A model generated the notes under the pieces. The model made no database searches and was not told where the DNA came from. It saw nothing but the letters and a program-made list of their open reading frames with translations. From positions 934 to 64,933 of the forward strand of contig CAZAOU010000002.1 in NCBI GenBank assembly GCA_964487135.1: a DNA stretch of 64,000 bases, written 5' to 3'. Below, in pieces: positions 26,538 through 63,370 of the stretch. The DNA comes from an uncultured Candidatus Saccharibacteria bacterium. Lineage in GTDB: Bacteria; Patescibacteriota; Minisyncoccia; Phycocordibacterales; CAIRYW01. Position numbers and translations under genes: made by a program. Every line of letters starts with the position of its first letter. The first letter of the stretch is position 1.

Positions 26538-26543
26538 TAAAAA

Positions 26544-27612: not shown

Positions 27613-28275
27613 CTATACAATGGCCATTTCCCTCACTCGTATGGCAGCCGGCTTATTAAAATCCGCCTCAAGCTCTTCCGCTGCTTCTTCAACAATAGTA
27701 TTAAATTCGTCCTTTGAAATTCCAAAAATACTTTTAAAATGAAGCAAATCTTCATTAATCTTCTTTTCACCCATCTCACTTAAAGACAATCTTAATGCCA
27801 ATAGAGCATCTTCCTTCCATGAAGAAAAATCGTAATTAGGATAGACCAAATCAGCAAATTTCAATATCTCAACAAAATCATACGATTTCATTATCTTACC
27901 AAACTCTTTCTCAAATTCTTCTTTTAGAGACTCATCAGAGTTAGTGGAATTTAAAAAATCAGAAATATTTGATGAAATATTTTTAATATCAAATATTTCT
28001 CTAATTTTAGACGCTTCTCTAAACTTTTTAAATTTAAATTGTTGAAGTATCACCATTTCTGCAAGCTGTCTCGTTTCCGGATCACTAACAATTTTTTCTT
28101 TTAGATCTTTAGGGATTATTAACGATGGAATATATTCACCAGTATCGTTAGTTGCTTTATCTAAAGACGCGGGTTCTGATAGATAGTTTAAAAGTCGCTC
28201 TCTTATTGATTTTATACCACTCTCCACAATATCCTCGTGACTAACATTTACATCTTCAGGGACTTCGTATGGCAT
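27613..28275 (-). CDS. hypothetical highly charged soluble protein, downstream of rmuC in the same orientation
   Basis: 220-aa ORF, no recognisable family; 9-bp gap to rmuC. Confidence 0.45.
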   Translation of the reverse strand: MPYEVPEDVNVSHEDIVESGIKSIRERLLNYLSEPASLDKATNDTGEYIPSLIIPKDLKEKIVSDPETRQLAEMVILQQFKFKKFREASKIREIFDIKNISSNISDFLNSTNSDESLKEEFEKEFGKIMKSYDFVEILKFADLVYPNYDFSSWKEDALLALRLSLSEMGEKKINEDLLHFKSIFGISKDEFNTIVEEAAEELEADFNKPAAIRVREMAIV

Positions 28276-28283
28276 ATTTATAC

Positions 28284-29336
28284 TTAATCTTCCAAAGAAG
28301 GTTTTTCTAAAACATCAACTTCAATCCCTGGACTATTTCCCGCAATCCTCAAGATATCTTTATCAATCTTCTTTAGTTCTTTTCCTGAAGCGTTGTAATG
28401 GTTAACCACTACAGACATAGCATTGCCAAGTTTTAAATGATAATCTTCGTAACTTTTTAGATGTTTACCCAAATCATCTACGCGTTTAATAATATCTTTT
28501 GCAGTCTCTTCAATTTGAAGTTGTTTTAGACCCTGAAGAACTGTTTGCAGATAAGCCAAAAACGACGTTGGAGAAACAATAATCACCTTATACTTCCCTG
28601 CAGCACGCTGAATTAAGCTTTCTGAGTCTTCTTTTAGAGCTCCTATTTTATTTATAAGTAAATCATAATAAATTGCCTCATGTGGTATAAACATAAAAGC
28701 AAAATCCGTTGTTCCGTTTTCTGGCTGAATATATTTTGAAGTTTCTACAATCCTGTTTTTGAGATCATTTACAAAAATCTTCTCTAATTTTTCTTTTTCA
28801 ATCTCATTTCTTTCATCAACAATACGATTATAATTTTCCAGAGAAAATTTTGAATCAACTGGAATAATTTTATCTTTTACAAAAACAGCCGCATCAACAA
28901 TGGTGCCGTCCGAAAAAGGATACTGCATCTGGAAACTTCCGGGAGGTAAAACATTTTTAAGAAGTGTTTCTAAATAATATTCTCCCAAAATTCCCCTTTG
29001 TTTTGGATTTTTTAAAACATCTTGCAAACTTTGAAGTTGGTCAGCAAAAGAGACTACTTGCCTATTTGTTTCATCAAGTTTGGTAAGACCCTCCGTTACA
29101 TCTTTGATGAGGCGTGCAGATTCACCGAATTGAGTTTTGACTGCGTCATGAATAAACCTATGTGACTCCCCTATTTTGTTATCTACAGTTCGTGAAAGAT
29201 TGTTTAGTTGATCCAAAATAAGTCTAAGACCTGTTCCATCTTCTTCTTTTGGTTTCTTTTTTAAAACAAAAAATAAGACAGCTATGTTAGCTGCGAAAAG
29301 TATTATAATTATTGCTATAAATCCCGTATTAGACAT
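28284..29336 (-). CDS. rmuC: DNA recombination protein RmuC family
   Basis: N-terminal TM, coiled coil, 'QRGILGEYYLETLL', 'PVDSKFSLENY', 'FAFMFIPHEAIY' matching RmuC conserved blocks. Confidence 0.75.
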   Translation of the reverse strand: MSNTGFIAIIIILFAANIAVLFFVLKKKPKEEDGTGLRLILDQLNNLSRTVDNKIGESHRFIHDAVKTQFGESARLIKDVTEGLTKLDETNRQVVSFADQLQSLQDVLKNPKQRGILGEYYLETLLKNVLPPGSFQMQYPFSDGTIVDAAVFVKDKIIPVDSKFSLENYNRIVDERNEIEKEKLEKIFVNDLKNRIVETSKYIQPENGTTDFAFMFIPHEAIYYDLLINKIGALKEDSESLIQRAAGKYKVIIVSPTSFLAYLQTVLQGLKQLQIEETAKDIIKRVDDLGKHLKSYEDYHLKLGNAMSVVVNHYNASGKELKKIDKDILRIAGNSPGIEVDVLEKPSLED

Positions 29337-31329: not shown

Positions 31330-32355
31330 CTAATTCCTACGGTTTCTCAATTGTGTTTGATAATCTGCTATTCCCCATGATTCTCCCCTAAGTCTTACAA
31401 GATCAAGCTCATAATCTCTAATTGTTTCTGAGGGAGAACGATCAAAAGTATACCCGTCGCTTAATTTGGGACGATAATCTGGACTCAGCACATGAGCAAC
31501 ATCACGAATTCCACGACTAACCCTTCTAACAAAACCACTGAAAGTTTGTCTTTTTTTAATTTCTTCTATTTCTTGTTCAATGCTTTCAGAAGCTTTTCTT
31601 ATAGCAACAAGCATTTTATCAGTTTCTTCTAAAGAAGGGTGTTGTCTTACCAAATCTTCAAAAGTCTTAAATCGAGCCCATGACTCAATAGATTCTTCTC
31701 TTCGTCTTTCCAAACCTTTAGAATTAAATCCTTTCCCTTCATCAGATTCTGCACCTTTTTTAAAACTGTCAGATTCTACTTGTTTTCCAGTTAACCACCT
31801 CCTAAAATCCGCTACATCTTCATGATCTCTTTCTTTTACTGCTCTAAAAAAATTAGCTAACATGGACAGAGATACATACTCAACAGAAAACTCACCTTTT
31901 TTACGTAACGCTTCATCCTGTTGTTTAAAAGTATCTTCCATCATTTTTTGTACCTCGTCTGCAATAGGGAATCCTTTTTTACTACTATCCCATTTATGCC
32001 AGACATCTTGAGATTCATCTTTACCACCTTCTTCAAAATTTGAACTAGATTCTCTATCAATCATAGTAAGAATCTTTCCTGCATTTTCTGCAATAAGTTC
32101 TTTTCCTTTAGTTTTTCCTGTAATTTCTCTCTTACTATCTGGATGTGTTTTTCTAATTTGGACCGCTTCAAAAAATGAGCTGTCTTCTAAAGCTTTAAAA
32201 TATAACCGCGAAGAAATTCCTCTCTCTTTTTGTCTTTCTTTTGGATCAATATCGGTATCACTACGTTCAATGGTTGTTTCAGGTACGATCGGGCTATCCT
32301 CTAATTTTTCAGCATCATCCGGTCCTGATACTACTGCTGGTTCTTCAAATGACAT
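31330..32355 (-). CDS. hypothetical acidic/charged soluble protein
   Basis: 341-aa ORF, no TM, no recognisable motif. Confidence 0.45.
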   Translation of the reverse strand: MSFEEPAVVSGPDDAEKLEDSPIVPETTIERSDTDIDPKERQKERGISSRLYFKALEDSSFFEAVQIRKTHPDSKREITGKTKGKELIAENAGKILTMIDRESSSNFEEGGKDESQDVWHKWDSSKKGFPIADEVQKMMEDTFKQQDEALRKKGEFSVEYVSLSMLANFFRAVKERDHEDVADFRRWLTGKQVESDSFKKGAESDEGKGFNSKGLERRREESIESWARFKTFEDLVRQHPSLEETDKMLVAIRKASESIEQEIEEIKKRQTFSGFVRRVSRGIRDVAHVLSPDYRPKLSDGYTFDRSPSETIRDYELDLVRLRGESWGIADYQTQLRNRRN

Positions 32356-34289: not shown

Positions 34290-35993
34290 TTATCTGTCTG
34301 GTGGAATATTGTAATAATTGATTAAAAATTTAGACAATGAAAGAAACGGCTCCGCAAGAGTCTCTGCCGCAAACTGCACTCCTTTCGGGTAGACAGTATA
34401 CATTAGAACCAAAAATTGAGGGTTATAGGCCGGAAAATAGCCCACAAACGAGTGTAAAACCCTATCAGAGTAATATCCCCCTTCTGGACTTGCTATCTGC
34501 GCAGTGCCCGTTTTGGCTGCTACAGAATAATGAGGGTTTTTACCTTTTCCATTCAAAAGAGAGGTATCAACAACTTTTACAAGCATACGCGTTATTTCGT
34601 CTGCTGATTCTTTTTTGATAGCTTGTTTGCCTACATAACCTTCTAAGGGATCAAAAGAAATACCATCAGAATATTCTATTTTTTTTACAACATGAGGTTT
34701 TACCAAAACACCCCCATTTGCAAGAGCCGACATAGCCCTAACTGTTGAAACCGGAGTTAGAGCAATTCCCTGACCAAACGAAGCAGTTATATATTCAATG
34801 GTTCTTGGACTCTTTAAATTTCCAACGATATTTTGGGCTTCATTTGGCAAATCAATTCCAGTTTTTTCTCCAAGACCATAGCTCATCATATATTCACCAA
34901 ATTTTTTAGTTCCAAGTTTAGTAACAACATAAGAAACACCTGTATTTAAAGAATGATTCAAAACTTCCTGCATTGATATTTGTCCTCTACCTTTTTTGTC
35001 ATAATTGTAAATTGTTTCAGTATCCACAGAAAAACTTCCCTTATCAAAATATGTTGACGAAGGAGTTACAACACCCGCATCAATACCTGCAGCCATCGTA
35101 AGTGGTTTAATAATTGAACCCATCTCTTTTACCTCCTCAACTAGTGGGTTAGAAAAAACCAACGCTGATTTTTCTTTTGAAAAATTATTTGGGTCAAAAT
35201 TTGGAAAACTAGCCATTGCATAAATCTCGCCATTTTTTGGATTAATTATTATTCCCGATGTTTCCGCAGAAGACCATCCGGTATGAACTTTTTTTAGAGT
35301 CTCTTCCAAAGAAGTTTGCACTGTTGGTTCTATTGTTGAAAGCAAATCACCCTCTCGTTCTCCCCCATTAAGACCGGACTTTATATTCGAAAATATCTCA
35401 ACAAAAAAATTTGCATATAAATCCTTTTCTTTTCGAGAAAGTGTTTTGTCATAAAATTTTTCAAGTCCATATCTTCCAGCCAGTTCATCACCTTTATAAG
35501 CAACAATACCCAAAACATGAGAAGCATTTTCACCGCCCGGATAGACTCTCCAACGCTCTTTTACCAAACGAACTGAAGGAATTTTTAAGGCGGAAATTTT
35601 TAATGCAGTTTGTTCGTCAATTTTTTTTGCAATTTCTTCGTATGGATCGTTTTCTTTTTTTGCTTTTTCAATAAAAGAATCTTTATCAAGTGAAATAAAT
35701 TTACTTAGGGTTTCAAAAAGTTCTTCGGGATTACTAATTGCTTTTGGAATAATTGCTATAGTAAATCCCGTCTTTACACCGGCAGCAGAAATACGAGAAC
35801 CGTCTTTGTGTTCAAAATAAATGTTTCCTCTATTAAAAATTCCGCCTGATGATTTTGAATATTGTCTATCAGCCAAACCAACAAATTGATCATGCCTTAA
35901 AATCTGTAAAAAATATAATTTGGCAATAAAAACAAAGCCAACTGCCACTACGCATAAAGATAATATGCGTATTGATAAAGTTGACCTCTTCAT
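34290..35993 (-). CDS. ftsI: penicillin-binding protein (class B transpeptidase, FtsI-like)
   Basis: N-terminal TM, SxxK 'SIIKP', SxN 'SLNTG', KTG 'KTGTAQ'. Confidence 0.85.
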   Translation of the reverse strand: MKRSTLSIRILSLCVVAVGFVFIAKLYFLQILRHDQFVGLADRQYSKSSGGIFNRGNIYFEHKDGSRISAAGVKTGFTIAIIPKAISNPEELFETLSKFISLDKDSFIEKAKKENDPYEEIAKKIDEQTALKISALKIPSVRLVKERWRVYPGGENASHVLGIVAYKGDELAGRYGLEKFYDKTLSRKEKDLYANFFVEIFSNIKSGLNGGEREGDLLSTIEPTVQTSLEETLKKVHTGWSSAETSGIIINPKNGEIYAMASFPNFDPNNFSKEKSALVFSNPLVEEVKEMGSIIKPLTMAAGIDAGVVTPSSTYFDKGSFSVDTETIYNYDKKGRGQISMQEVLNHSLNTGVSYVVTKLGTKKFGEYMMSYGLGEKTGIDLPNEAQNIVGNLKSPRTIEYITASFGQGIALTPVSTVRAMSALANGGVLVKPHVVKKIEYSDGISFDPLEGYVGKQAIKKESADEITRMLVKVVDTSLLNGKGKNPHYSVAAKTGTAQIASPEGGYYSDRVLHSFVGYFPAYNPQFLVLMYTVYPKGVQFAAETLAEPFLSLSKFLINYYNIPPDR

Positions 35994-39870: not shown

Positions 39871-41568
39871 CTAGTTAGTATTGACTAACTCCTTTTTATC
39901 TGTTGTTATCCAATTTAACACAGACCCCATAACTCTCATAGCACTGACTTTATATGTTGGTGGTCCCTGCTCTAAAACAACGGCAAAGGTATATTTTGGA
40001 TTTTCGTATGGAAAAAATCCTTCAACCCAAGAATTTACATACTGTTTCCTTGCACCCACTTCTGCGGTTCCAGTTTTTGCAGCGACAGTAAGTCCTGGAA
40101 TGAGTAAAGCTCCGGCGGTTCCGTTAGTGACGGCCAATCTCATACCTTCATGAACAATATTATATTTAGCTTCATCAATTTTTGGTAATTCAGATATTTG
40201 TCCTTGTTCATCTTTTCTTATAACTGGTTCAACGATTTTACCTTTGTTCGCTATTCCTGTCATCGCTCTTGCTATCTGAAGTGGAGTAACCTGAAAACCG
40301 TATTGCCCAATTGAAGTATGATATGTATTTCCCAGAGTCCATTCCTCTCCATTAAAAGTTTCTTTTTTCCATTCTGGTGTTGGAATATTTCCTGAAGGAC
40401 CAGATAACGCCCCCGTAGTAGGAATTCCTAGTTTAAACAGTGTAAAATATTTATCTAATTTTGTAATTCCTAAACCTTTTTGATCTGCATACCCTCCACC
40501 GACTGCATAAAAATAAACATCAGATGACACAGCTAACGCCTCTCTCATATCTGTAAAGCCGTGAACTTTCCAGTCCTTAAAAATACTTTTTTTGGAAGGA
40601 TCGTAAGGATTTGGAATAGATATTGATCCCTTACTTTCTATTTTTTTATTTGGACTTATTATGTTTTCTTCTAATACACCAACTGAAATATATGGCTTTA
40701 CAATAGAGCCCGGGGCATAAAGACCCGATATTGCTCTATCAAGTGAGGGTTTTCTCTTGCTATTAAAATAAAAATTTATAAGAGAACTGTCTTTTCCCTC
40801 TGTTAGGACAGAAGATTTATATTCAGGATAAGAAGAAATTGCTAAAACCTCACCTGTTTTTGCATCCATAATGACACCTGCACCACCCTCAAATCCCGAT
40901 TCATCAACTGCATAAGATAAAAAATGATAAAGTCTTTCCTGTAAAGATGCATCAATAGACAACGAAAGTTTTTCTCCTGAAATTGGTTCTTCAAGAATAC
41001 TTTGAGACTCCACCTCTCCTGTCGCATTTACTTCTGTAAGCTTTACTCCATTAGTTCCTGAGAGAATTTCATCAAAATATTTTTCCAAACCATCCTGACC
41101 GTTTATTTTAGTCTCATAAAAAAATCCTGAAGAATCTTTTCTTGGATATTTCACGAAACCAAGCAAAGTTCCGAAGCCACTTTGTTCAATATATCGGCGC
41201 ACCGGAAAAACAGAATCGGCAGACAATTCATTCCAAGATAAAGGAATATCGTTTCTATCCGTTATTACTCCCCTATGAGCAAATACAATATCTTTTCGAA
41301 GGAGATTATTTTTACTTTTTTCGCTATAAAAATTTGCTTTAACTATTTGTAAATCTACCGCCCTGTAAATAAACATTAAAATAATTATCAAAAACAAAAT
41401 ACCCCCTATTAAAAAGGGTTTGGATCCTATCGGCTTTTCTATTCGACCCTCAAATTGATATTTATCATAAGATGGAATATTTGTGGCATCCAAAAATACT
41501 TCATCTGGATCGATAGATTTAATCTTGTGAGAGCGATTATAAAAAAAGTTTTTTATGAAAAAAAACAT
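39871..41568 (-). CDS. mrdA: penicillin-binding protein 2 (class B, elongation-type)
   Basis: SxxK 'SIVKP', SxD 'SSDVYF', KTG 'KTGTAEV'; follows mreBC(D). Confidence 0.8.
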   Translation of the reverse strand: MFFFIKNFFYNRSHKIKSIDPDEVFLDATNIPSYDKYQFEGRIEKPIGSKPFLIGGILFLIIILMFIYRAVDLQIVKANFYSEKSKNNLLRKDIVFAHRGVITDRNDIPLSWNELSADSVFPVRRYIEQSGFGTLLGFVKYPRKDSSGFFYETKINGQDGLEKYFDEILSGTNGVKLTEVNATGEVESQSILEEPISGEKLSLSIDASLQERLYHFLSYAVDESGFEGGAGVIMDAKTGEVLAISSYPEYKSSVLTEGKDSSLINFYFNSKRKPSLDRAISGLYAPGSIVKPYISVGVLEENIISPNKKIESKGSISIPNPYDPSKKSIFKDWKVHGFTDMREALAVSSDVYFYAVGGGYADQKGLGITKLDKYFTLFKLGIPTTGALSGPSGNIPTPEWKKETFNGEEWTLGNTYHTSIGQYGFQVTPLQIARAMTGIANKGKIVEPVIRKDEQGQISELPKIDEAKYNIVHEGMRLAVTNGTAGALLIPGLTVAAKTGTAEVGARKQYVNSWVEGFFPYENPKYTFAVVLEQGPPTYKVSAMRVMGSVLNWITTDKKELVNTN

Positions 41569-41810
41569 TATTCAATTCTAAACGAAGTCTTAACAATATG
41601 CGATACCAAATAGATAACAATGCTCGCAACAATTATATAAAAATACGAAAACAAATCTCCCTTGGAAAAGGCGCTGACCCATAAAGGGGCCCAAATAAAT
41701 ATTTCCAAAAAATCCCAAGTAAAAGCACATCCTATAATTATTATTGGCGCCACATACCACGGACACAAAAATACTGATATCAAAATTGCAATGTTAGCAA
41801 AAATTCTCAT
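41568..41810 (-). CDS. small membrane protein in the mreD position (possible minimal MreD)
   Basis: 80 aa, 3 TM helices, between mreC and pbp2. Confidence 0.35.
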   Translation of the reverse strand: MRIFANIAILISVFLCPWYVAPIIIIGCAFTWDFLEIFIWAPLWVSAFSKGDLFSYFYIIVASIVIYLVSHIVKTSFRIE

Positions 41811-42571
41811 TTTATAATTGAGTGGGAAACGATAACATTCTCAATTTCAAAAGGATTGACCAAAGGCCTTACAATTAATCTTTTTAAAGTATCAGACTCT
41901 TTTTCTATAATCCTTTCAACCTTACCAGCAATACTTTTGTTATCTTGAAAAATTACCCCTTCGCCAACCGATACATTAACAGCAATAGGCACATAACTTT
42001 CATATACACCACCACCAATACCTTTAAGCTCTATAGGCACACGAGAAATTGATAGTCTGGCCTTTGATAATTTATCGTTAGTTGTTAACAATTCCACCTG
42101 AGAAAATTTATCGGAAACTTTTGATATAAAACCAATGGTAGTTGAAGAAAACAAAACATGATCACCGGATAAAACCCCATCAAGTGATCCTTTGTCTATA
42201 AAAAGAATATCGTAGGGTGTGTATCCGGGGTTACCTAAAATATAAGCATTCAAAAAACCTTTAGAATTTTCTGTGTCTGAATTATTTTCTTGGTTAATTA
42301 ACTTATACTCTGACAACATAGTTTGAAGTGATATCACTTCTTGTTTTAGTTTATTATTTTCTTCTTGAAGAAAATGTTTAGTAGTAAAAATATCTAAAAA
42401 TGGCATAGAAAAAAAAGACTGCCGAACAGAAAGTTTTAAAGAATTTATTGGATTATAAATAAAATAAAATATTGCTGATACAAAAATCGCAATGAGTACA
42501 ATAAAACCCGATTTCAAAAAAAATCTATTCTGACTTTCCTTTTTTTTTCTAGCGGACGAAAGGTAAATCAT
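41807..42571 (-). CDS. mreC: rod shape-determining protein MreC
   Basis: N-terminal TM, coiled coil, beta-rich C-domain; follows mreB. Confidence 0.7.
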   Translation of the reverse strand: MIYLSSARKKKESQNRFFLKSGFIVLIAIFVSAIFYFIYNPINSLKLSVRQSFFSMPFLDIFTTKHFLQEENNKLKQEVISLQTMLSEYKLINQENNSDTENSKGFLNAYILGNPGYTPYDILFIDKGSLDGVLSGDHVLFSSTTIGFISKVSDKFSQVELLTTNDKLSKARLSISRVPIELKGIGGGVYESYVPIAVNVSVGEGVIFQDNKSIAGKVERIIEKESDTLKRLIVRPLVNPFEIENVIVSHSIIK

Positions 42572-43610
42572 CTTCGTTATCTATAAGAGCATCCTTAAAT
42601 TCGTCTAGGCTTGATAAAATTATGCCAGCACCCCTAGCCACCGCGGTAAGAGGTTCATCTGAAATATAAACAGGAATTTTTAAACTCTCCTCTAATAATT
42701 CCTTAAGACCTCTAAGCAAAGCACCTCCACCTATTAAATGTATTCCTTTATACATAATATCGGAAACAACTTCAGGTGGTGTAATTTCTATAACCTCTTT
42801 TATGGACTCTATCAGTGTATCAATCGATAACCCGATTGCCTCTCTTACATCAGAATCTGTAATAACAACTTCTCTTGGTAATCCGGTAACCAAATCTCTA
42901 CCTCGCACAGGCATTTCCAGACTTTCTTGACCTGGAGTTACATTTCCGATGCCAATTTTTATTTCTTCTGCAGTTTTTTCACCAATTAAAATTTTAAATT
43001 CGTTCCTTAAATAAGAAACAATGTCGTTGGATAATCTATCGCCAGCAATTTTAATGTTTCTTGAATGAACAATTCCTCCAAGAGATATGACAGCAACATC
43101 AGTTGTTCCTCCTCCAATATCAACAATCATATTTCCAACCGGATCATGAATAGGCAAACCAATTCCAATTGCTCCAGCCATCGGCTCTTCAACAATAAAG
43201 ACATCGCGCGCTCCAGCATTTTTTGCAGCATCCCTTACCGCCCTTCTTTCAACGTTTGTAATTCCAGACGGTACCCCAACAACAACACGCGGACCAAGCC
43301 ATTTTTTTCTATTTTCTGTTGCCTTCTTTATCAAATAAGAAAGCATTTCTTCACAAACTTCAAAATCAGAAATTACCCCATCAACAATGGGCCTGACCGC
43401 AACAATATGCCCCGGAGTCCTTCCAAGCATATCTTTAGCTGATGCCCCAACAGCAACTACCTGACCAGTCTTTTGATTTACAGCAACAACAGAAGGTTCA
43501 TTTATTACAATACCTTCACCCTTAACCCAGACTAAAGTATTTGCGGTCCCGAGGTCAATACCAACATCTTCAGAAAATAATGAAAAAAATTTTTCTTTAA
43601 GAGTTGACAT
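42549..43610 (-). CDS. mreB: rod shape-determining protein MreB
   Basis: 'GIDLGTANTLVWVKGEGIVINEPSVVAV', actin-fold phosphate/adenosine motifs. Confidence 0.9.
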   Translation of the reverse strand: MSTLKEKFFSLFSEDVGIDLGTANTLVWVKGEGIVINEPSVVAVNQKTGQVVAVGASAKDMLGRTPGHIVAVRPIVDGVISDFEVCEEMLSYLIKKATENRKKWLGPRVVVGVPSGITNVERRAVRDAAKNAGARDVFIVEEPMAGAIGIGLPIHDPVGNMIVDIGGGTTDVAVISLGGIVHSRNIKIAGDRLSNDIVSYLRNEFKILIGEKTAEEIKIGIGNVTPGQESLEMPVRGRDLVTGLPREVVITDSDVREAIGLSIDTLIESIKEVIEITPPEVVSDIMYKGIHLIGGGALLRGLKELLEESLKIPVYISDEPLTAVARGAGIILSSLDEFKDALIDNEDDLPFVR

Positions 43611-46595: not shown

Positions 46596-47270
46596 TTACG
46601 AAAGAGCGACTAATGATAAAAGTTGTTTTACGGAAGCAGAGTGAGAGGGTAAATAATTTAATGCAACCGCAATACTTTCTAAACTTTTTGTATTTTTTGA
46701 AACATCTTTTAATAATTCTTCATGCAAAGCCATTAAAAAATCTTCTACCTCCTCTTTTGAAATTTCTTCATTTTTATATTTATCTGCCATAGATTCAGCG
46801 TAAGAATTTTTCTTTCCAATTGATAATCTTAAAAAAGATTCTGCCTCTTTTTGAAATTTATTTTTTTGGTCTATTTTAATTTCTCGGCTTTCAACCATTC
46901 TAGAAAAAAGAGTAGGAAGTAATATATTTCTTGGGGCTAAAACATAAAAACAAACAGACTCCGATGGTTCTTCAAAAGTTTTTAGAAGAGCATTTTGAGA
47001 TATTGAATCTGCACTCCAAAAAGAAACTAGGATATGTAATTGTGACTCTTTTACTGGAACAGAAAGTGTTCTTTCTTTTATTAATCTGGCATCTTCAATA
47101 AGCAATTTATCGTATTCAAATACTAAAACATCTGGGTTAGCTGAAATTGAAGACGATAGTTTTGTTTCAATAAAATCTTTTAGTTTATCTAAAGATACAT
47201 TTTTTCTTTCAAAAAATAATGCGTGGTGATTTATGGTGGATAGTGGATAGTGAATAGTGGATAGTGACAT
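46596..47270 (-). CDS. minimal DNA polymerase III delta'-like clamp-loader subunit (HolB-like)
   Basis: 'NALLKTFEEPSESVCFYVLAPRNILLPTLFSRM' matches the clamp-loader sensor-1/SRC block; degenerate P-loop region 'HHALFFERKN'; no Zn module. Confidence 0.55.
   Translation of the reverse strand: MSLSTIHYPLSTINHHALFFERKNVSLDKLKDFIETKLSSSISANPDVLVFEYDKLLIEDARLIKERTLSVPVKESQLHILVSFWSADSISQNALLKTFEEPSESVCFYVLAPRNILLPTLFSRMVESREIKIDQKNKFQKEAESFLRLSIGKKNSYAESMADKYKNEEISKEEVEDFLMALHEELLKDVSKNTKSLESIAVALNYLPSHSASVKQLLSLVALS
47229..47266 (-). repeat. tandem DnaA-box-like repeats (CACTATCCACT x3 plus a variant) overlapping the holB-like start
   Basis: + strand 'ggtggatagtggatagtgaatagtggatagtgac'; on the gene strand it reads atgTCACTATCCACTATTCACTATCCACTATCCACC. 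Confidence 0.5.
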
Positions 47271-47327: not shown

Positions 47328-48341
47328 CTACCTTTTCGCGATAATAGTCTTCTTGTATGTATCAAGATGCTCAAGAGCAACGCCTGTTCCCAAAACAACA
47401 CAATATAATGGCTTTTCTGCCAAACTCGCCTTAACCCCTGTTCGTCTAAGAACTAACTCTGGAAGATTTCGAAGCTGTGATGAGCCCCCTGTCATAATAA
47501 TCCCCTGATCAATAATGTCAGATGCAAGCTCGGGAGGAGTCTCTTGTAATACATCTTTTATTGCTTGAATCATTTCACGAAGTTCTTTTCCAAGAGCTCT
47601 AACAACCTCATTTGTTTTTATCTCAATAGAACGAGGAAGCCCAGAAATACAATCTCTTCCTTTTACCATCATGGACAATTCCTCTTCAACAGGCACGGCC
47701 GAACCAACAGCTATTTTTATTTCTTCAGCAGTCTTATCGCCAATCAAAAGATTGTGAGCTTTTTTCATATAATCAACAACTGCTGAATCCAACTTATTAC
47801 CCGCGCACTTAACAGAAGTTGATGAAACTATACCTCCCAAAGATATAACTGCCACATCCGTTGTTCCTCCTCCTATATCAACAACCATATGTCCTCTTGG
47901 CTCATATATAGAAATCCCAGCACCAATTGCTGCAAGAATTGGTTCTTTTACAACAAACGCATTTTTAGCTCCGGCCTTTATTGCCGCCTCAATAACAGCC
48001 CTTCTCTCTGTTGAAGTGACTCCTGCCGGCACAGATATCATTACTTCTGGTTTTAAAAGACTCCACTTACCAAGAGCTTTTGTCATGTAGTATCTAAGCA
48101 TTGCCTCAGTTACTCTGTAATCCGCAATCACACCGTCTTTTAGAGGTCTGTAAGCAACAATAGTATCTGGTGTTTTTCCTATCATATCTTTGGCCTCCAA
48201 ACCAACCGCCAATATTTTGTTACCCTCTTTTGAAACCGCAACAACAGATGGTTCGTTTAGGACGATTCCCTTTCCTGGAGCAAAAACAAGCGTATTAGCT
48301 GTGCCTAAATCTATACCTAGTTTATTGCTAAATAACGCCAT
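47328..48341 (-). CDS. MreB/Mbl-family actin homolog (second paralog)
   Basis: 'LGIDLGTANTLVFAPGKGIVLNEPSVVAV'; 337 aa; ~55% identical in its N-terminus to the mreB at 42549. Confidence 0.8.
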   Translation of the reverse strand: MALFSNKLGIDLGTANTLVFAPGKGIVLNEPSVVAVSKEGNKILAVGLEAKDMIGKTPDTIVAYRPLKDGVIADYRVTEAMLRYYMTKALGKWSLLKPEVMISVPAGVTSTERRAVIEAAIKAGAKNAFVVKEPILAAIGAGISIYEPRGHMVVDIGGGTTDVAVISLGGIVSSTSVKCAGNKLDSAVVDYMKKAHNLLIGDKTAEEIKIAVGSAVPVEEELSMMVKGRDCISGLPRSIEIKTNEVVRALGKELREMIQAIKDVLQETPPELASDIIDQGIIMTGGSSQLRNLPELVLRRTGVKASLAEKPLYCVVLGTGVALEHLDTYKKTIIAKR

Positions 48342-48444: not shown

Positions 48445-49761
48445 ATGTTAAAAACCGAGTCTAAAAGTTTAAATTTTAAAATAGAAGGAGGTAAAAAATT
48501 GAGGGGCTCTATTGAGATAAAAAAGTCCAAAAATGCTGCGGTATCTCTTTTGTGTGCCTCACTTTTAAATCAAGGAAAAACTACTCTAAAAAAAGTTCCT
48601 AAAATTGAAGAGATTTTCCGCATTATAGAAGTGTTTCAGAGTATTGGAATAAATGTTGAGTGGAATAAAGAAGACTTAATAATTTCACCTAAAAAAATAA
48701 ATCTAAAAAAAATTAATACTGAATCGGCCAAAAAAACTAGAACGGTTATTATGATGATTGGTTCTCTGGTTCATCTATTTAAAAAATTTACACTGCCATA
48801 CGCAGGTGGATGTAAATTAGGTAAAAGAACAGTTACCCCACACTTTTATGCTTTAGAAAATTTTGGGGTATCAATTGAAACAAAATCAGACGAATACGAA
48901 ATAAAAGCCAACAGATTAAAACCTGCTGAAGTGGTCTTATACGAAATGGGAGATACTGTGACAGAAAATACTATCCTAGCAGCTTCATCTATATCAGGAA
49001 CCTCTGTAATAAAGTTTGCTTCCTCAAACTACATGGTTCAAGACCTTTGTCATTTTTTAGAAATTTTAGGAGTTAAAATTGAAGGCATAGGAACATCAAC
49101 ACTCATTATTCATGGCAAAAAAAATATAAACACAGATGTAACTTTTGAGATGAGTGAAGATCCTATAGAAGCAATGTTTTTTATAACATCAGCCATAGTA
49201 ACAAAATCATCAATAACAATAAAAAAATGTCCGATTGATTTTTTACTCTTAGAATTATTAAAACTCAAAAAAATGGGTTTTAAATATAAAATTGAAAAAG
49301 AGTATTTAGGAGAAAATGGTTTTATAAAATTAGCGGACATTAAAACATTTCCATCACAACTAAAATCACCTGTAGAAAAAATACATCCCTTAACCTATCC
49401 CGGAATAAATATTGATAATCTTCCGTTTTTTGCAATCATAGCAACCCAAGCCGATGGAGAAACATTAATTCATGACTGGGTTTATGAAAATAGAGCGGTT
49501 TATTACACAGAACTTACAAAATTAGGAGCTGAAATGAATTTGGCAGACCCTCATCGAATTTATATAAAAGGAAAAACAGAGTTAAAACCAGCAGATATAG
49601 CAACGCCGCCGGCCTTAAGGCCGGCGGCCATAATCCTTATCGGAATGCTTGGAGCCAAAGGAACTTCAATCTTGCGAAATGTATATTCAATAAATAGAGG
49701 CTACGAAGACCTATCAGAAAGACTAAAAAAATTAGGGGCCAAAATACAAATTTCTGAATAA
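48445..49761 (+). CDS. murA: UDP-N-acetylglucosamine 1-carboxyvinyltransferase
   Basis: EPSP-synthase fold repeats; active-site Cys loop 'YAGGCKLGKRTV'. Confidence 0.8.
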   Translation: MLKTESKSLNFKIEGGKKLRGSIEIKKSKNAAVSLLCASLLNQGKTTLKKVPKIEEIFRIIEVFQSIGINVEWNKEDLIISPKKINLKKINTESAKKTRTVIMMIGSLVHLFKKFTLPYAGGCKLGKRTVTPHFYALENFGVSIETKSDEYEIKANRLKPAEVVLYEMGDTVTENTILAASSISGTSVIKFASSNYMVQDLCHFLEILGVKIEGIGTSTLIIHGKKNINTDVTFEMSEDPIEAMFFITSAIVTKSSITIKKCPIDFLLLELLKLKKMGFKYKIEKEYLGENGFIKLADIKTFPSQLKSPVEKIHPLTYPGINIDNLPFFAIIATQADGETLIHDWVYENRAVYYTELTKLGAEMNLADPHRIYIKGKTELKPADIATPPALRPAAIILIGMLGAKGTSILRNVYSINRGYEDLSERLKKLGAKIQISE

Positions 49762-49800
49762 TTTGGCATAATCTGGCTTCGTGAGAAAATTAATATACTC

Positions 49801-51678
49801 ATGAGCATGTATGTAATAACAATTATCCCAATACTCCGATCAATAAATAAAGAGAGTCTCTCTTACCTTTCAAGTGAGTATTTTGAGGAAGGAAGTATTG
49901 TCTTAATTCCAGTTAGAAATAAATCTGTTCCGGGAATAGTAATTTCCATAACAAAAGCCGAGAATCAGAAAAGTGAAATAAAAAAATCGTCTTTCCAATT
50001 AAAAAAACTTCAGGCCTCAGTAAAAGCAAAAATCAATCCAAAACTTATAATGGCCAGCAAAAAAATGGCATCTCTTTACGCAACAACACCGGGAGCCATA
50101 CTTGGACATTTTATAAATGAAAACAATTTAAACTATTTATCAAACATACAAAATAAAACAGAGTCCAACGTTGCAACTCCAGAAAATAAAAAAAACTTAA
50201 AGCCTGAAAAATTTGCCATACAATCCGATGAAGAAGATCGTTTAAATATCTACAAAAGTCTCATAAGGGAATCGTTCGCTAAAAAACATTCAATTTTTTT
50301 GGTTCTACCCACAGAAGAGAAAGCTAAGAAAGTATTTTCAAAACTATCTAAAGGTATAGAAGATTATGTTTTTTTATTTAGTAATTCCCTATCAAAAAAA
50401 AGAATTGGAGAAAACATAAATTCCATAAATGAAAGCATTCACTCGGTTGTTATTATTGCAACATCATCATATCTTCCCTTTGCAAGAGATGATATAAAAA
50501 CAATAATTATTGAAGCGGAATCTTCAAGATTTTATGTAAAAGAAAGGAGACCTTATATAGACGTAAGATCACTACTAGAAATATATGCCGAAGAAATAGG
50601 TTCTTCACTTGTATATGGAGACACCCTATTAAGAGTTGAGACCCATTTTCAAATTGATGAGGGTAAAATACTTGAATACGGAAGACTCTCTAACAAAATA
50701 AATCATCCTATCCAAACACTGATTGTAAATACCAAAAAAGAAGATGACGAAAAATCACCGTTTGAAATATTTTCTAAAGAACTAAAAGAAATGATTTCTT
50801 TTGTTGTTAAAAAAAACAAAAAGATTTTTATTTTAGTTCTCAGAAAAGGACACTCCCCAGAAACAGTATGTAGAGACTGTGGTAAAACCGTTTTGTGTAA
50901 AGAATGTGAGGCACCAGTCGTTTTACACAAAGGATCCAAAGAAAATATATTTATTTGCCATCACTGCGGAAAAAAAAGAAGCGCTAAGGAAACATGTACT
51001 AATTGTGGAGGATGGCGTCTCGAATCTTTTGGTATTGGCATAGAAAGAGTAAAGGAAGAAATAAATAAAATATTTTCAATATCACCAATTATTATTGAAT
51101 CGGAAAAAGATTCAAAAACTTTTCTTGAAGATAAAACATCGATTGCTTTGGGAACGGAAAAATCTCTTGAATATTTGGAATCAAACAGTTTGCCGTATGT
51201 AGCAATAGCAAGTATTGATTCTTTATTTGCTATCCCAGACTTCCATGTGAGAGAAAAAATCATGCATATTTTACTTGAACTAAAATCAAAATCTTCAGAA
51301 TACTTATTGATACAAGGCCGAAATACCGAAGACAACATAATAGAACAGGGATTATCTGGTGATTTAAGGAATTTTATAAAAGAAGAAATAATATCGCGAA
51401 AAAAATGGGGTTACCCACCCTTTTCAGTCTTTATTAAAATAACAATATCTCTAGAAAAAGAAAAAATAAAAAAAGAAATAGAAGTCCTTAATACTTATTT
51501 TAGTAGTTACGAAAAAATTATTTTTCCAGCATTTATAAAAGTTAAAAAAGGAAAATCAATCTGCCATATGCTTATTAAAATCAAAAAAGAAAACTGGCCA
51601 GATAAGATTCTTATAGGAAAACTATTGTCACTCCCTCCTTACATAGAAGTTAGGATAAATCCAGAAAGTTTGTTGTAA
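49801..51678 (+). CDS. primosomal protein N' (PriA)-like with degenerate helicase core
   Basis: PriA N-terminal DNA-binding region 'GSIVLIPVRNKSVPGIVISI' and Cys-rich Zn module 'CRDCGKTVLCKECEAPVVLHKG...CHHCGKKRS...CTNCGG'. The Walker A position reads 'SDEEDRLNIY' and the DEEH position reads 'EAES'. Confidence 0.65.
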   Translation: MSMYVITIIPILRSINKESLSYLSSEYFEEGSIVLIPVRNKSVPGIVISITKAENQKSEIKKSSFQLKKLQASVKAKINPKLIMASKKMASLYATTPGAILGHFINENNLNYLSNIQNKTESNVATPENKKNLKPEKFAIQSDEEDRLNIYKSLIRESFAKKHSIFLVLPTEEKAKKVFSKLSKGIEDYVFLFSNSLSKKRIGENINSINESIHSVVIIATSSYLPFARDDIKTIIIEAESSRFYVKERRPYIDVRSLLEIYAEEIGSSLVYGDTLLRVETHFQIDEGKILEYGRLSNKINHPIQTLIVNTKKEDDEKSPFEIFSKELKEMISFVVKKNKKIFILVLRKGHSPETVCRDCGKTVLCKECEAPVVLHKGSKENIFICHHCGKKRSAKETCTNCGGWRLESFGIGIERVKEEINKIFSISPIIIESEKDSKTFLEDKTSIALGTEKSLEYLESNSLPYVAIASIDSLFAIPDFHVREKIMHILLELKSKSSEYLLIQGRNTEDNIIEQGLSGDLRNFIKEEIISRKKWGYPPFSVFIKITISLEKEKIKKEIEVLNTYFSSYEKIIFPAFIKVKKGKSICHMLIKIKKENWPDKILIGKLLSLPPYIEVRINPESLL

Positions 51679-51739
51679 AAAATTTGCCCCAAAATTAAAT
51701 AGAAGTTTAATTTTGGGGCATTTACTATTTACTTTTTTA

Positions 51740-52040
51740 AAATTTTGTAAAAAATTTTTTCGAAATGGCAGTAAACCGAGTTCGCATTCCCGAAGGAACA
51801 CAAATCTGTGTTCTTAATCCCCACCAACACATCGAAACCCGTGCCACAGGAAAAGAAACTCTTGCGAAGACCATCGTCCGATTGCTTCGCGAAAACGACC
51901 TGTGGTTTCCAACACACAAAGTTCTTTCGGCCCTAAGACGGCATGAAATCAAATTCGGAATAATAATAGTCACTATTCCGCTTAACACCTGACGCCCCCC
52001 CAGAGAGGCGCCATTTTTATTTATTGTTATATATAGTAAT
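51740..52040 (+). ncRNA. GC-rich (~50%) intergenic block upstream of def, candidate structured RNA; identity unknown
   Basis: Abrupt GC rise. Hairpins 'gaacaca-aatc-tgtgttc' and 'cggaata-ataatagtcact-attccg'. Ends in a C-rich hairpin plus T-run near 51990-52020. The overlapping 60-80-aa ORFs on both strands are not protein-like. Confidence 0.2.
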
Positions 52041-52048
52041 CTTTAGAC

Positions 52049-52576
52049 ATGGAAAATAGCATAATCCAAAGAGACAACCCCATATTAAGACAAAAAGCTA
52101 AAGAAGTAGGGATATCGGAAATAAAAAGTGCTTATGTCCAAAATGTTATAAAAAACATGAATAGTGCCCTATCCAAAGAAAAAGATGGCGTGGCCTTAGC
52201 TGCACCACAAATAGCAATATCTCTTAGAATTTTTGTTGTCGCGGGAATTGCTTTTGACATTGCAGAAGGTACATACGAAGAAAACAGGGAAAGCGCACGA
52301 AAAAACATGGTATTTATAAATCCAGTAATAACAAAAACATCAAAATCACGGAAAGATGTTGAGGAAGGATGTCTTTCTGTAAGATGGAAATATGGAAAAA
52401 TTTCTAGAGCCACCAAAGCAACAGTTGAAGCGTATGATGAAAATGGTAAAAAATTTTCTTACGGAGGCACAGGACTTATTGCTCAAATCTTTCAACATGA
52501 AACAGACCATCTCGACGGCAAACTATTTATAGACAACGCCCATGACATTATAGATTTACCCCCAAAACAAAAATAA
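52049..52576 (+). CDS. def: peptide deformylase
   Basis: 'GVALAAPQIA', 'EGCLSV', 'QHETDHLDG' three canonical PDF motifs. Confidence 0.9.
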   Translation: MENSIIQRDNPILRQKAKEVGISEIKSAYVQNVIKNMNSALSKEKDGVALAAPQIAISLRIFVVAGIAFDIAEGTYEENRESARKNMVFINPVITKTSKSRKDVEEGCLSVRWKYGKISRATKATVEAYDENGKKFSYGGTGLIAQIFQHETDHLDGKLFIDNAHDIIDLPPKQK

Positions 52577-53430
52577 TGAAATTCGTTTTTTTTGGTTCAT
52601 CTGAAATATCGGTTATTGCTTTAGAGACTTTAAAAAAAGAAGGTTTAATTCCCTCACTAATAGTTACATCTCCCGACAAGCCTCAGGGAAGAGGTCTCTC
52701 TCTTATGGGAACAATAGTTAAAACATGGGCAACATCCAACAACATACCCTTTATACAACCAACCTCCCTAAAAGAAACAGAAATTATAGAAAAATTATCT
52801 AGAGAAAACGCACCCCTTTTTGTATTGGTGTCTTATGGAAAAATAATTCCAAAAGAGATCTTGGAAATTCCCCTTCAAGGAATTCTAAATCTTCACCCTT
52901 CAATTCTTCCCAAACTTCGTGGTCCATCTCCTATAGAATCATCAATATTGCTTGACCAAAAAGACAATTTTGGAATTTCAATAATTATGCTTGATGAAGA
53001 AATGGATCATGGGCCGATTTTAGCCCAAGAAAAAATTGAGCTCGCCGAATGGCCACTATCAAAAGAAACCTTAACAACAATTGCCGGATCACAAGGAGGA
53101 CTTCTTTTAGCAAAGACAATGAAACTATGGAGCGAAAGAAAAATATCCCCAATAGAACAATCACACCACAATGCTACTTATACTAAAAAAATTGGTAAAG
53201 AGAATTCTTTTATTAATTTAGAAAACAATCCTTACAAAAATTATCTTATATATTTAGCGTGCGGTAATAATCCAGCTCCATACTTTTTTGTAAACCATTT
53301 AGGAAAGCAAATAAGAGTAAAAATAACTAAAGCTTCTTACAACAACAATACATTTACAATTGAAAAAGTAATACCCGAAGGCAAAAAAGAAATGTTCTAC
53401 GAAGATTTTAAAAGAGGATTAAAATCCTAA
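52576..53430 (+). CDS. fmt: methionyl-tRNA formyltransferase
   Basis: 'MKFVFFGSSEISVIALETL', 'LNLHPSILPKLRGPSPI' formyltransferase SLLP motif; def-fmt operon. Confidence 0.9.
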   Translation: MKFVFFGSSEISVIALETLKKEGLIPSLIVTSPDKPQGRGLSLMGTIVKTWATSNNIPFIQPTSLKETEIIEKLSRENAPLFVLVSYGKIIPKEILEIPLQGILNLHPSILPKLRGPSPIESSILLDQKDNFGISIIMLDEEMDHGPILAQEKIELAEWPLSKETLTTIAGSQGGLLLAKTMKLWSERKISPIEQSHHNATYTKKIGKENSFINLENNPYKNYLIYLACGNNPAPYFFVNHLGKQIRVKITKASYNNNTFTIEKVIPEGKKEMFYEDFKRGLKS

Positions 53431-55952: not shown

Positions 55953-56519
55953 CTACTGAACCAAGACCGCAATCATTTGGTCTGGTTCAATTGGCGCACT
56001 GGAAGGACGAAGCAGAGCTCCGAGATATGGGTCTCCGTCTTTGGAACACCCAACCTCAAGAACAATACTGTCGCCCATGCCGGGGACATCGATAGGTTGA
56101 TGGGCCAACCAGATTTTCTCTCCGGCAGGCTGTTTTGCCATAACCTCCCTCATAAACAGTCCGAGGATAGGATCAATCTTCGGGGCCTGACCGAAGAAAC
56201 TCTTCTCGGCAATCCCAGCCACACCAAGTCGCCCTGCCGAGCAAATACGAACCTTGTATAAGCCCGGTGGAATCTGTTTGATCAATCCTTGCTCGACAGC
56301 CCTTTTGACATGGTCAGAGACCATCTCTCGGGGACTGATACGGAACCGATCCAAATTGTTACAAAGGATAGCTGGAGTGACATAATCAACAGGGATATCA
56401 ACCACCCGATCAAGAATGGTGACTTTCGCACGGCCTTCAAGAAAGGCCGTGACTGCCTCAAGTTCTTGATCTGATCCGCGTCCAGCACGGATCATTTCCT
56501 GACGGATTTTTTCAATCAT
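55953..56519 (-). CDS. hypothetical wHTH-containing protein (AbiEi-antitoxin-like fold?), GC-rich
   Basis: 188 aa, ~52% GC; 'ISPREMVSDHVKRAVEQGLIKQIPPGLYKV' resembles helix-turn-helix + wing 'RGxY'. Confidence 0.35.
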   Translation of the reverse strand: MIEKIRQEMIRAGRGSDQELEAVTAFLEGRAKVTILDRVVDIPVDYVTPAILCNNLDRFRISPREMVSDHVKRAVEQGLIKQIPPGLYKVRICSAGRLGVAGIAEKSFFGQAPKIDPILGLFMREVMAKQPAGEKIWLAHQPIDVPGMGDSIVLEVGCSKDGDPYLGALLRPSSAPIEPDQMIAVLVQ

Positions 56520-57359: not shown

Positions 57360-57923
57360 ATGACAGAAATATTTGTAATAGTCGCCTCCTTGTTCGCCGT
57401 CGTTGGCAATGTTCCGTATCTCAAAGATATATTAAAGGAAAAAGTAAAACCTCATCCATACACTTGGTTTGTGTGGTCGCTAGTCTCTGGAATAAATCTT
57501 TTTGGACAAGTGGCAAAAGGAGCTGGAATTGGAGCAATACCAACCGCAGCATCAGAAATATTTACAGTCATCATTTTTTTCTTCTCACTTAAATATGGTT
57601 TTAAAAATATTCAAAAAAGAGACACTTATTTTTTAATTATTGCACTTTTAGGAATAATTCCTTGGATAATAACAAAAGATCCAACCATTTCCGTAATTAT
57701 TGTTGTGATAATAGATTTAATAGCATTTATACCAACACTTCAAAAGACATGGGCACACCCCGAAACAGAAAATTCTATTTTATATAAAATGAATGTATTA
57801 CGACATGGCTTAACGCTGCTTTCTTTGCAAAGTTATAACATCGCCACAACCCTACACTCAATTTCGATGATAATAACTAACACTTTGATGACAGTGTTTT
57901 TGTCAAAAAATAGAAAAAAATAA
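57360..57923 (+). CDS. hypothetical integral membrane protein
   Basis: 187 aa, ~6 hydrophobic helices. Confidence 0.45.
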   Translation: MTEIFVIVASLFAVVGNVPYLKDILKEKVKPHPYTWFVWSLVSGINLFGQVAKGAGIGAIPTAASEIFTVIIFFFSLKYGFKNIQKRDTYFLIIALLGIIPWIITKDPTISVIIVVIIDLIAFIPTLQKTWAHPETENSILYKMNVLRHGLTLLSLQSYNIATTLHSISMIITNTLMTVFLSKNRKK

Positions 57924-61696: not shown

Positions 61697-63370
61697 TTAT
61701 TGTCCCCAATAACACGCACCACCCTGAGCATTACATGAACTTATCGTACTGAAAGACGAACAATTTATACTTGAAGGACCGCACGAACCGGATTGAGGAA
61801 TATAAGTATAGCTACAACCATATCCACTACTGCTGTACTGTTGACAAGTAGATGAATCTAAACCTGAACAACTTCCGGAAGCATAAACGGGGTGTTCTCC
61901 ATTACAAGCATTTGAAGCACTATCAAACGAACAACCTTGTAAGCTATTACAATAATCCACCTTCTGCTGATAATCTTCATCCTCTGGATTACCGCCGTAA
62001 TAGATATTGCAACTTTGATTGCCTGTATAATAACTATAATCACCTGTGCAAGAATAACCCTCCGCCGTGCCGTTCCAAATACACAGGCCACCAGTTGCAT
62101 TACAATTAGAACTTGAATTTATATACTGGCAACTTGCACTATCATAATTGTGACAACTTCCTCCTCCCGGCTCACAAATATCTCCCACACCATTATTATC
62201 GTAGTCATCCTGCCCTGGATTATAATTTGTCGGACAATTGTCTAAACTATAAGCAATTCCATCGTAGTCAGGATCATAACAAGCATCCCCAGCTCCTCCA
62301 GCTGAACCTTGCGCTGACTGACTAGGGTTATAAACATTTGGACAATTATCACTTGAATTAGGAATTCCATCGGCATCAGAGTCAGCATCAGGATCACACA
62401 CATCTCCTATACCATCATTGTCAGAATCAGCCTGGTTTGCGTTAGAAGTGCTTGGACAATTATCTTGAGAATTAACAATTCCATCACTATCACTATCTAT
62501 ATTATCTTGATCACACACATTTCCTATTCCATCATTGTCAGAATCAGCTTGATTAGCGTTAGAAACTGATGGACAGTTGTCTGTTTCATTAGGTATTCCA
62601 TCGCCATCTGAATCGGCGGCTGTCTCACACACATCTCCTATTCCATCATTATCAGAATCAGCTTGGTTTGCATTAGAAACTGACGGACAGTTGTCTGTTG
62701 AATCTGGCACGCCATCACCATCTGTATCTACTGGATTATTACATGTGTCTGTGGAATCTGTCGGACAAGAATCGCAAGAGTCTCCTCTACCATCATTATC
62801 TGTGTCTGTTTGAAGAGCATTTGAAACAGATGGGCAATTATCTGCATTATCTTTTACTCCATCATCATCTAGATCGTCATCCGTTGTGGTTTGAGTGGTT
62901 GTAGCAAAATATGTTGAATATCTAATTGATACAGTATTTTCAGGACATAAATTTAAACTACCACTTTGAATATACTGACTTGAAGAACAAGAGTTATAAA
63001 CAATTCCCTGCTGTTCACCATTTTCGTCGGTAATAATAGGAAATTCCAAAGACTGTTCCCCAAATGGAGCAAAACTCGAATTTATACGCGTTGTAACAAC
63101 CTGACCATTTACCATACAATCATCGGCAGTAATACAACAATATGAAGAACCCTCATCACAACTTGGATATCCTCCATTGTCTTGATTATATTCTTCAAGA
63201 GCCAATTGAACTTGGTGAGCTTGAACAACTGTTTTTGCGTCATTTGCTTTCTTCTTACTCGTTGCAACAGAAGCTGATACCACACTTGAAAGAAGTGAAA
63301 TTATAGAAATTACCATCATTAACTCTATGAGGGTAAAACCTTTTTTAAAAAACTCTTTTTTAAAATACAT
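61697..63370 (-). CDS. large type IV pilin-like protein with thrombospondin type-3 Ca-binding repeats and a Cys-rich C-terminal domain (putative pilus adhesin)
   Basis: N-terminal 'KKGFTLIELMMVISIISLLSSVV' prepilin motif. About six repeats of 'D-DGxGDxCD…DxDGDGxPDxxDNCPxVSNANQADSDNDGIGDVCD'. C-terminus has >25 Cys. Confidence 0.7.
   Translation of the reverse strand: MYFKKEFFKKGFTLIELMMVISIISLLSSVVSASVATSKKKANDAKTVVQAHQVQLALEEYNQDNGGYPSCDEGSSYCCITADDCMVNGQVVTTRINSSFAPFGEQSLEFPIITDENGEQQGIVYNSCSSSQYIQSGSLNLCPENTVSIRYSTYFATTTQTTTDDDLDDDGVKDNADNCPSVSNALQTDTDNDGRGDSCDSCPTDSTDTCNNPVDTDGDGVPDSTDNCPSVSNANQADSDNDGIGDVCETAADSDGDGIPNETDNCPSVSNANQADSDNDGIGNVCDQDNIDSDSDGIVNSQDNCPSTSNANQADSDNDGIGDVCDPDADSDADGIPNSSDNCPNVYNPSQSAQGSAGGAGDACYDPDYDGIAYSLDNCPTNYNPGQDDYDNNGVGDICEPGGGSCHNYDSASCQYINSSSNCNATGGLCIWNGTAEGYSCTGDYSYYTGNQSCNIYYGGNPEDEDYQQKVDYCNSLQGCSFDSASNACNGEHPVYASGSCSGLDSSTCQQYSSSGYGCSYTYIPQSGSCGPSSINCSSFSTISSCNAQGGACYWGQ

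Follow-up and report, generated by a model that had tools for sequence, protein, structure and literature searches.

A PriA homologue of Patescibacteria that lacks the ATPase motifs and is probably a natural pseudohelicase

In a 2017 review of the primosomal helicase PriA, Deinococcus was the sole exception to the conservation of the helicase. The PriA of D. radiodurans, in which the Walker A lysine is an arginine and motifs I and II are poor (PMC4504706), shows neither ATPase nor helicase activity and binds single-stranded DNA (ssDNA), forks and DnaB (PMC4504706; Lopper, Boone & Morrow 2015), in a lineage, Deinococcus-Thermus, that is without PriB or DnaT (PMC4504706). In Escherichia coli a single Lys to Arg exchange abolishes the ATPase activity of PriA (PMC4504706, PMC5778457), cells carrying priA300 (K230R) are nearly wild type (PMC5778457), the K230A protein reloads DnaB in vitro (PMC10175261), and helicase-dead variants support restart through the PriA-PriB pathway (PMC5778457, PMC10175261). 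The actinobacterial PriA was described in 2005 as 'smaller and very divergent' (PMC1193525). Literature searches on PriA in Patescibacteria, the candidate phyla radiation and Parcubacteria, on other pseudohelicases and on the mycobacterial motifs returned nothing specific beyond PMC4504706 and PMC1193525. Here we describe a priA-like gene in a 64,000-nucleotide stretch of contig CAZAOU010000002.1 (hereafter the window), the product of which we consider likely to be a PriA orthologue of a Paceibacteria/Parcubacteria bacterium turned natural pseudohelicase, i.e. an ATP-independent scaffold for fork recognition and helicase reloading. A natural pseudohelicase form of PriA has been on record since 2015, from Deinococcus-Thermus; new in the present case are the lineage and the more extreme loss. 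The gene lies at:

49801..51678, + strand: priA-like gene, 625 amino acids (aa) plus stop, ATG start, from the list of open reading frames (ORFs)

The reading frame is uninterrupted across its 625 codons, with no internal stops, and as the alignments of relatives begin at Met3, translation may in fact set in at the second ATG (49807). Judged by sequence profiles, the product is unambiguously a divergent homologue of PriA that falls short of equivalog status. The match to the NCBIfam model TIGR00595 is strong (159.7 bits, E 1e-46), starts at model position 12, just past the P-loop, and stays below the curated equivalog cutoff of 230.35; NF004066 likewise gives 166.6 bits against a cutoff of 813. 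A Pfam scan of the 625-aa protein recovered the PriA 3' DNA-binding domain (PF17764, residues 21-102, 23.8 bits, above the cutoff of 22.7) and, just under its cutoff of 26, the PriA zinc ribbon (PF18319, residues 366-392, 21.2 bits), and found no helicase domain. Identity to model PriAs is 14-18%; nevertheless, phmmer with the single sequence retrieved PriA chains only from the PDB sequences (E 1e-15), and a profile built from 114 relatives matched PDB PriA with an E of 5e-56. The actinobacterial type, the short form of which is flagged by UniProt as without detectable helicase domains, was tried as a candidate and rejected: the PRK14873 models give 75.5 bits at best, their cutoffs being 812-1147, and this weak match, set beside the better ones to PRK05580 and TIGR00595, indicates that the protein is not a member of the actinobacterial subfamily.

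The predicted structure is that of a PriA. The AlphaFold2 model, for which the alignment of the 114 relatives served as input, has a mean predicted local distance difference test score (pLDDT) of 90.1 and a predicted template-modelling score (pTM) of 0.89, and in a Foldseek search of the PDB its nine best matches are all PriA, from crystal and from cryo-EM work, aligned over the full length with template-modelling (TM) scores of 0.70-0.79, followed by generic superfamily 2 (SF2) helicases at TM <=0.41. Model and search together reveal the SF2 core fold, with two RecA-like lobes, a cysteine-rich region (CRR) inserted in lobe 2 and, thereafter, the C-terminal domain (CTD). The best structural match is the E. 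coli PriA delta-WH protein (6dcr, TM 0.79/0.77), an engineered form without the winged-helix (WH) domain, and it ranks first because the protein described here is also without this domain. To compare the catalytic positions, E. coli PriA taken from NC_000913 was aligned with the query and its relatives by MAFFT, and a second, independent alignment was obtained with HMMER against PDB PriA chains, including 4nl4. The parts of the protein where the motor would be expected are:

50206..50700, + strand: RecA-like helicase lobe 1, residues 136-300, fold without catalytic motifs (AlphaFold2 pLDDT >90, Foldseek, HMMER to 4nl4)
50221..50244, + strand: motif I (Walker A) remnant QSDEEDRL, residues 141-148, opposite E. 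coli GVTGSGKT (224-231)
50512..50568, + strand: motif II remnant EAES (238-241), opposite E. coli DEEH, and the aromatic-rich loop that follows it, SSRFYVKERRPYIDVR
50617..50631, + strand: motif III remnant GDTLL, opposite E. coli GSATP, with SAT turned to DTL
50701..51330, + strand: RecA-like helicase lobe 2, residues 301-510, split by the CRR (alignments and model)
50140..50205, + strand: linker in place of the WH domain, residues 114-135 (22 residues), an alignment gap with pLDDT 54-73

A comparison of these segments with their E. coli equivalents, with motif states counted in 262 family sequences and residue conservation in 259 relatives, showed that: 1) At motif I a P-loop is present in none of the 262 sequences. 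The site has no glycines across the family, and the loop carries D or E at 3-4 of 5 positions. R147 faces E. coli Lys230 in both the MAFFT and the HMMER alignment, the latter beginning at this very residue, and the position is Arg in 258/259 relatives. In the model, DSSP assigns a strand to residues 137-141 and then a helix to 144-160. 2) At motif II the family pattern is [ED]-[KRE]-E-[SN], DEEH being kept in two of the 262 sequences, and the position of the catalytic E. coli E321 is mostly Lys or Arg in the relatives and Ala in the query. 3) In motif III D274 replaces E. coli Ser356, and the position is Asp in 244 of the relatives. 4) Motif VI, QxxGRxGR (E. coli GRAGR), is unrecognisable, the query reading LELKSKSSE. 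5) The WH domain, which comprises about 80 residues in E. coli PriA, is absent, leaving a gap of ~85 residues opposite E. coli ~113-195; the median position of the motif I site across the family, 138, fits its absence. Every residue set for binding and hydrolyzing ATP is gone, and the protein is predicted to be ATPase-inactive.

Regular-expression scans of the whole protein found [AG]x4GK[ST], [ST]AT and GRxxR all absent, and the sole DExH-type string is the DEED within the acidic loop. The GK[ST] strings of the protein are limited to CGKT (361, in the zinc finger) and KGKS (584, in the C-terminal domain). A three-frame scan of 49600..51900 likewise detected no shifted GKT or DExH and no P-loop in other frames; since the other two frames carry 58-62 stops and no P-loop, there is no motif hidden by a frameshift. 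The original prediction, which had been made from the letters of the DNA, held that the GxTGSGKT site reads SDEEDRLNIY and the DEEH box EAES. Both strings occur (residues 142-151 and 238-241), and the alignments agree in their placement. The loss of Walker A and DEEH that it had deduced thus stands, but its extent had been underestimated, as motif III, the GRxGR of motif VI and the WH domain are gone as well.

The high conservation of the residues that replace the motifs (Q141, R147, E240, D274) raises the alternative that the protein is still an NTPase or translocase with a non-canonical nucleotide site, in which, for instance, Arg147 and conserved acidic residues bind a metal-nucleotide complex; the mention that E. 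coli PriA may have a second, weaker site for nucleotides (PMC5778457) is compatible with such a scheme. We regard it as very improbable: the glycine-rich loop is entirely absent, the strongly acidic loop in its place should repel phosphates, Lys, Arg or Ala stands in for the catalytic Glu, neither SAT nor the arginine-finger motif GRxGR is left, and in E. coli PriA the Lys to Arg exchange by itself kills the ATPase (PMC4504706, PMC5778457). A pseudohelicase remains the reading we prefer.

The degenerate state is not peculiar to this gene. A protein search returned 559 matches, of which the best 120 are full-length (~620-690 aa) with 37-52% identity to the query. The named relatives come from metagenome-assembled genomes (MAGs) of Paceibacterota, Parcubacteria, Taylorbacteria and the 'Patescibacteria group', several of them on contigs of ~1 Mb. 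The relatives sampled are the top-ranking matches and all members of one family, and within this sample ~260 full-length Paceibacteria/Parcubacteria proteins display the same motif-less state. Beyond them, the family profile, run against the representatives of 1.84 billion clusters, recovered at least 150 further clusters at 50% identity, all scoring above 698 bits. Further, two family-specific peptide patterns matched 552 stretches in species-representative genomes, 537 of which encode a relative; as one gene may match both patterns, the number of species lies between ~270 and 537. In the alignment 25 columns do not vary at all, among them those of R147, E240 and the CRR cysteines, and the presence of invariant residues at former active-site positions implies that these are conserved in a new state rather than drifting. 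By its alignment, the full-length family is under obvious purifying selection.

These data also bear on the possibility that we are dealing with a decaying gene or pseudogene, or with an annotation or assembly artefact of a single MAG. Such a reading could draw on the 14-18% identity to model PriAs and on the label 'hypothetical protein' that NCBI gives to many relatives. It is hardly credible: the ORF is uninterrupted, full-length copies that share one architecture and one set of invariant residues recur in hundreds of independent genomes, and the fold is predicted with high confidence. The conservation data refute it, and with it goes the frameshift or pseudogene that would have undone the original prediction.

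From its relatives, the source organism would be a member of the Patescibacteria, class Paceibacteria/Parcubacteria. Many third-party-annotation (TPA) assemblies label contigs of this family 'uncultured Candidatus Saccharibacteria', and one contig with a family member (JBEBJM010000006.1) bears the name 'MAG: Nitrospira sp.'. Both labels are probably binning or labelling artefacts and not occurrences outside Paceibacteria.

Against this loss of the motor stand the DNA-binding and zinc-binding elements of PriA, which are retained. The domains in question are:

49801..50139, + strand: 3' DNA-binding domain (3'BD), residues 1-113 (PF17764, conservation counts)
50860..51015, + strand: CRR, residues 354-405, four CxxC pairs (PF18319, conservation)
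51331..51675, + strand: CTD, residues 511-625 (pLDDT 85-97, full-length Foldseek alignment to PriA)

In the 3'BD, the pocket for the DNA 3' end, as defined by its residues in E. coli PriA (PMC5778457), keeps its Tyr (Y22, equivalent to E. coli Y18) in 256/259 relatives and has Lys or Arg at the position of E. coli K61 in 255/259, while the position of E. coli D17 is Ser or Thr in the query family. The aromatic-rich loop (ARL) after motif II, which in E. coli PriA binds DNA and acts as a wedge at the fork junction (PMC5175346, PMC10175261), is retained, with Y245, P251, D254 and R256 conserved. In the CRR the strings CRDCG, CKEC, CHHCG and CTNCGG supply the cysteine pairs 357/360, 366/369, 386/389 and 399/402; the four CxxC pairs predict two Zn sites, each of the eight cysteines is conserved in 252-259 of the 259 relatives, and D359, equivalent to E. 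coli D438, is kept. The original prediction that the N-terminal 3' DNA-binding region and the Cys-rich region survive is accordingly borne out, by the PF17764 match and by the eight cysteines respectively. The residues S481-T482-H483, by which E. coli PriA docks PriB (PMC10175261), are replaced by G-W-R in the query and by G/S-W-R/K in the family, and the Trp of this patch, Trp405, is present in 255/259 relatives. The CTD conserves a YPPF motif (E. coli LPPW) and a terminal V-x-P motif.

Taken beside the PriA of E. coli and Klebsiella pneumoniae (4nl4, 6dgd, 8fak), the family shares the domain order 3'BD, helicase lobe 1, helicase lobe 2 with the CRR, and CTD, and with the E. coli protein it also shares the pocket Tyr and Lys of the 3'BD, the ARL, the eight zinc-binding cysteines and D438. 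It differs from E. coli PriA in its low identity, in having neither a WH domain nor ATPase motifs, and in the replacement of the PriB-docking patch. With Deinococcus-Thermus PriA it has in common an Arg at the Walker A lysine and degraded motifs I and II, in both cases across the lineage. The loss in Patescibacteria nevertheless looks more radical, in that the glycine-rich loop, motif III, the GRxGR of motif VI and the WH domain have gone. The loss of activity was measured in Deinococcus PriA and is predicted in the Patescibacteria family.

The genes around priA speak to a further alternative, namely that the protein is a neofunctionalised PriA paralogue, such as a regulator that binds forks or D-loops or a recombination factor, with restart being performed by another protein elsewhere in the genome. 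The TIGR00595 score below the equivalog cutoff, the absent WH domain and the conversion of the CRR docking patch to an invariant Trp would all be in keeping with it, as would the fact that the survey for PriA spans 64 kb of the genome; within this window, tblastn revealed no second PriA, whether E. coli PriA or the present protein served as query. A murA-like gene (48445..49761) lies upstream of priA, and two genes lie downstream:

52049..52576, + strand: def (Pfam PF01327)
52576..53430, + strand: fmt (Pfam PF00551)

Of 80 related loci, 65 have def and 64 have fmt after priA, and the commonest order, M50 - frr - holB - mreB - murA - priA - def - fmt, equals that of the window. The adjacency of priA, def and fmt is also found in Firmicutes; a literature search on published priA-def-fmt gene order gave nothing useful. 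This conserved neighborhood supports orthology with priA and, with the priA-def-fmt order in 64/80 loci, tells against a paralogue. So do the name primosomal protein N', which the JGI and NCBI pipelines give to the family in these genomes, and the retention of the Tyr and Lys of the 3'-end pocket and of the ARL. Hence, we think a paralogue unlikely.

The presumed client of the protein is also encoded in the window:

25149..26537, + strand: dnaB, canonical replicative helicase, presumed client, 462 aa (Pfam DnaB_C E 2e-103, DnaB N-terminal E 2e-35)

Its Walker A motif is intact (ARPSMGKT), indicating that the motif loss is specific to PriA and not general to the P-loop proteins of this genome. 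The gene recR (198 aa; Toprim and RecR HhH/C domains) directly follows dnaB within 25149..27140, and rmuC lies nearby (28284..29336, - strand). Judged by their predicted products, dnaB, recR and rmuC show that recombination and replication functions are kept in this small genome. No homologue of PriB, DnaT or DnaD was seen in the window, no search having been aimed at them.

The Paceibacteria/Parcubacteria protein would most likely recognize forks and recruit DnaB without unwinding, in a manner matching the PriA of D. radiodurans and the K230R and K230A variants of E. coli. Under this proposal abandoned forks and D-loops would be bound by capture of the nascent leading-strand 3' end in the pocket of the 3'BD, and lagging-strand ssDNA would be held on the surfaces of the lobes, the CRR and the CTD. 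The CRR with its family-specific Trp405 patch, together with other surfaces, would then form a platform that docks DnaB onto the lagging-strand template, either directly or through a loader or SSB. No ATP would be consumed, and the lagging-strand duplex would be left unopened. In the model, strand 137-141 runs straight into helix 144-160, which puts D143, E144 and E145 at the N-terminus of the helix, where the P-loop would hold the phosphate, and R147 in its first turn. The three acidic residues are thereby predicted to cap helix 144-160, and the former nucleotide pocket is probably filled and stabilized by a charge network of D143/E144/E145, R147, E238, E240 and D274. Three points weigh against the pseudohelicase. 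The alignments differ on whether a basic residue near K495 matches the arginine finger of motif VI; the genome may encode, beyond the 64-kb window, a canonical PriA or another helicase as a substitute (Rep, PcrA or RecG); and the E. coli helicase-dead allele functions only through the PriA-PriB pathway, the docking patch for which is changed here. The original prediction had also seen in the protein an adaptation to a minimal genome. This is plausible, as the relatives are Patescibacteria, some on ~1-Mb contigs, but the same loss of the motor occurred in Deinococcus without a minimal genome.

We also advance, far more tentatively, a stronger version that may well not hold in all its parts: across the ultra-small bacteria of the class Paceibacteria, restart would have come to depend on a PriA turned permanently from a motor into a nucleotide-free scaffold, in which the acidic, Arg-ending helix cap takes the place of the phosphates of the bound nucleotide, or imitates them, and so locks the lobes, the WH domain has been dispensed with, and the invariant Trp patch docks DnaB or a loader directly.

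Several other features of the window deserve mention. Immediately downstream of the priA-like gene lies:

51685..51720, strand not assigned: terminator-like hairpin, 16-bp stem, 7 nt past the priA stop codon

The priA-def spacer in which it lies (51679..52048) is 370 nt long, where 63 related loci have a median of 41 nt, and has a core of ~250 nt with 48% GC in a genome of ~33-35% GC. It has no Rfam match, its folding z of about -1.2 to -1.3 on both strands is not significant, and no similarity to it was detected in the 80 related loci or elsewhere in the window; it could be the remnant of an insertion or a small RNA. The cumulative GC skew peaks at ~12-14 kb and declines steadily after, and the large ORFs are mostly on the + strand before ~17 kb and mostly on the - strand at 27-48 kb. 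This turn of skew and strand at 12-18 kb would fit a replication terminus, in which case murA-priA-def-fmt would be transcribed head-on to replication. The genes of the window further include two mreB paralogues (47328..48341 and 42549..43610, both - strand) with mreC (41807..42571, - strand), two PBP2-type transpeptidases (39871..41568, - strand, and 34290..35993) and a short DNA polymerase III delta'-like gene of 224 aa (46596..47270, - strand). A 557-aa protein (61697..63370, - strand) combines an N-terminal prepilin-type methylation motif with four matches to thrombospondin type 3 (calcium-binding) repeats and may represent a surface protein of an unusual, pilin-like kind. For four ORFs of 187-341 aa Pfam gave no match, for three at E 0.01 (27613..28275, - strand; 31330..32355, - strand; 57360..57923, + strand) and for one at E 0.001 (55953..56519, - strand).

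The family adds to Deinococcus-Thermus a much larger lineage, with hundreds of species of Patescibacteria, whose PriA has neither ATPase motifs nor a WH domain and whose remainder is under strong selection. It thereby favors the idea that PriA is indispensable for recognizing forks and recruiting DnaB. It would offer a natural 'minimal PriA', made of 3'BD, ARL, CRR and CTD on an inert scaffold of RecA lobes, that could guide structural and reconstitution work, with the acidic cap and its Arg147 and the CRR Trp405 as testable determinants. It also counsels caution in automated annotation: the scores of these proteins do not reach the equivalog cutoffs for PriA, many go by the name hypothetical, and those that are named merit no helicase Enzyme Commission (EC) number. 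If the proposal is true, and if the loss was independent of that in Deinococcus, these bacteria would constitute a second natural experiment in which PriA proves to be at its core a scaffold rather than an unwinding enzyme, and would define what a minimal PriA is.

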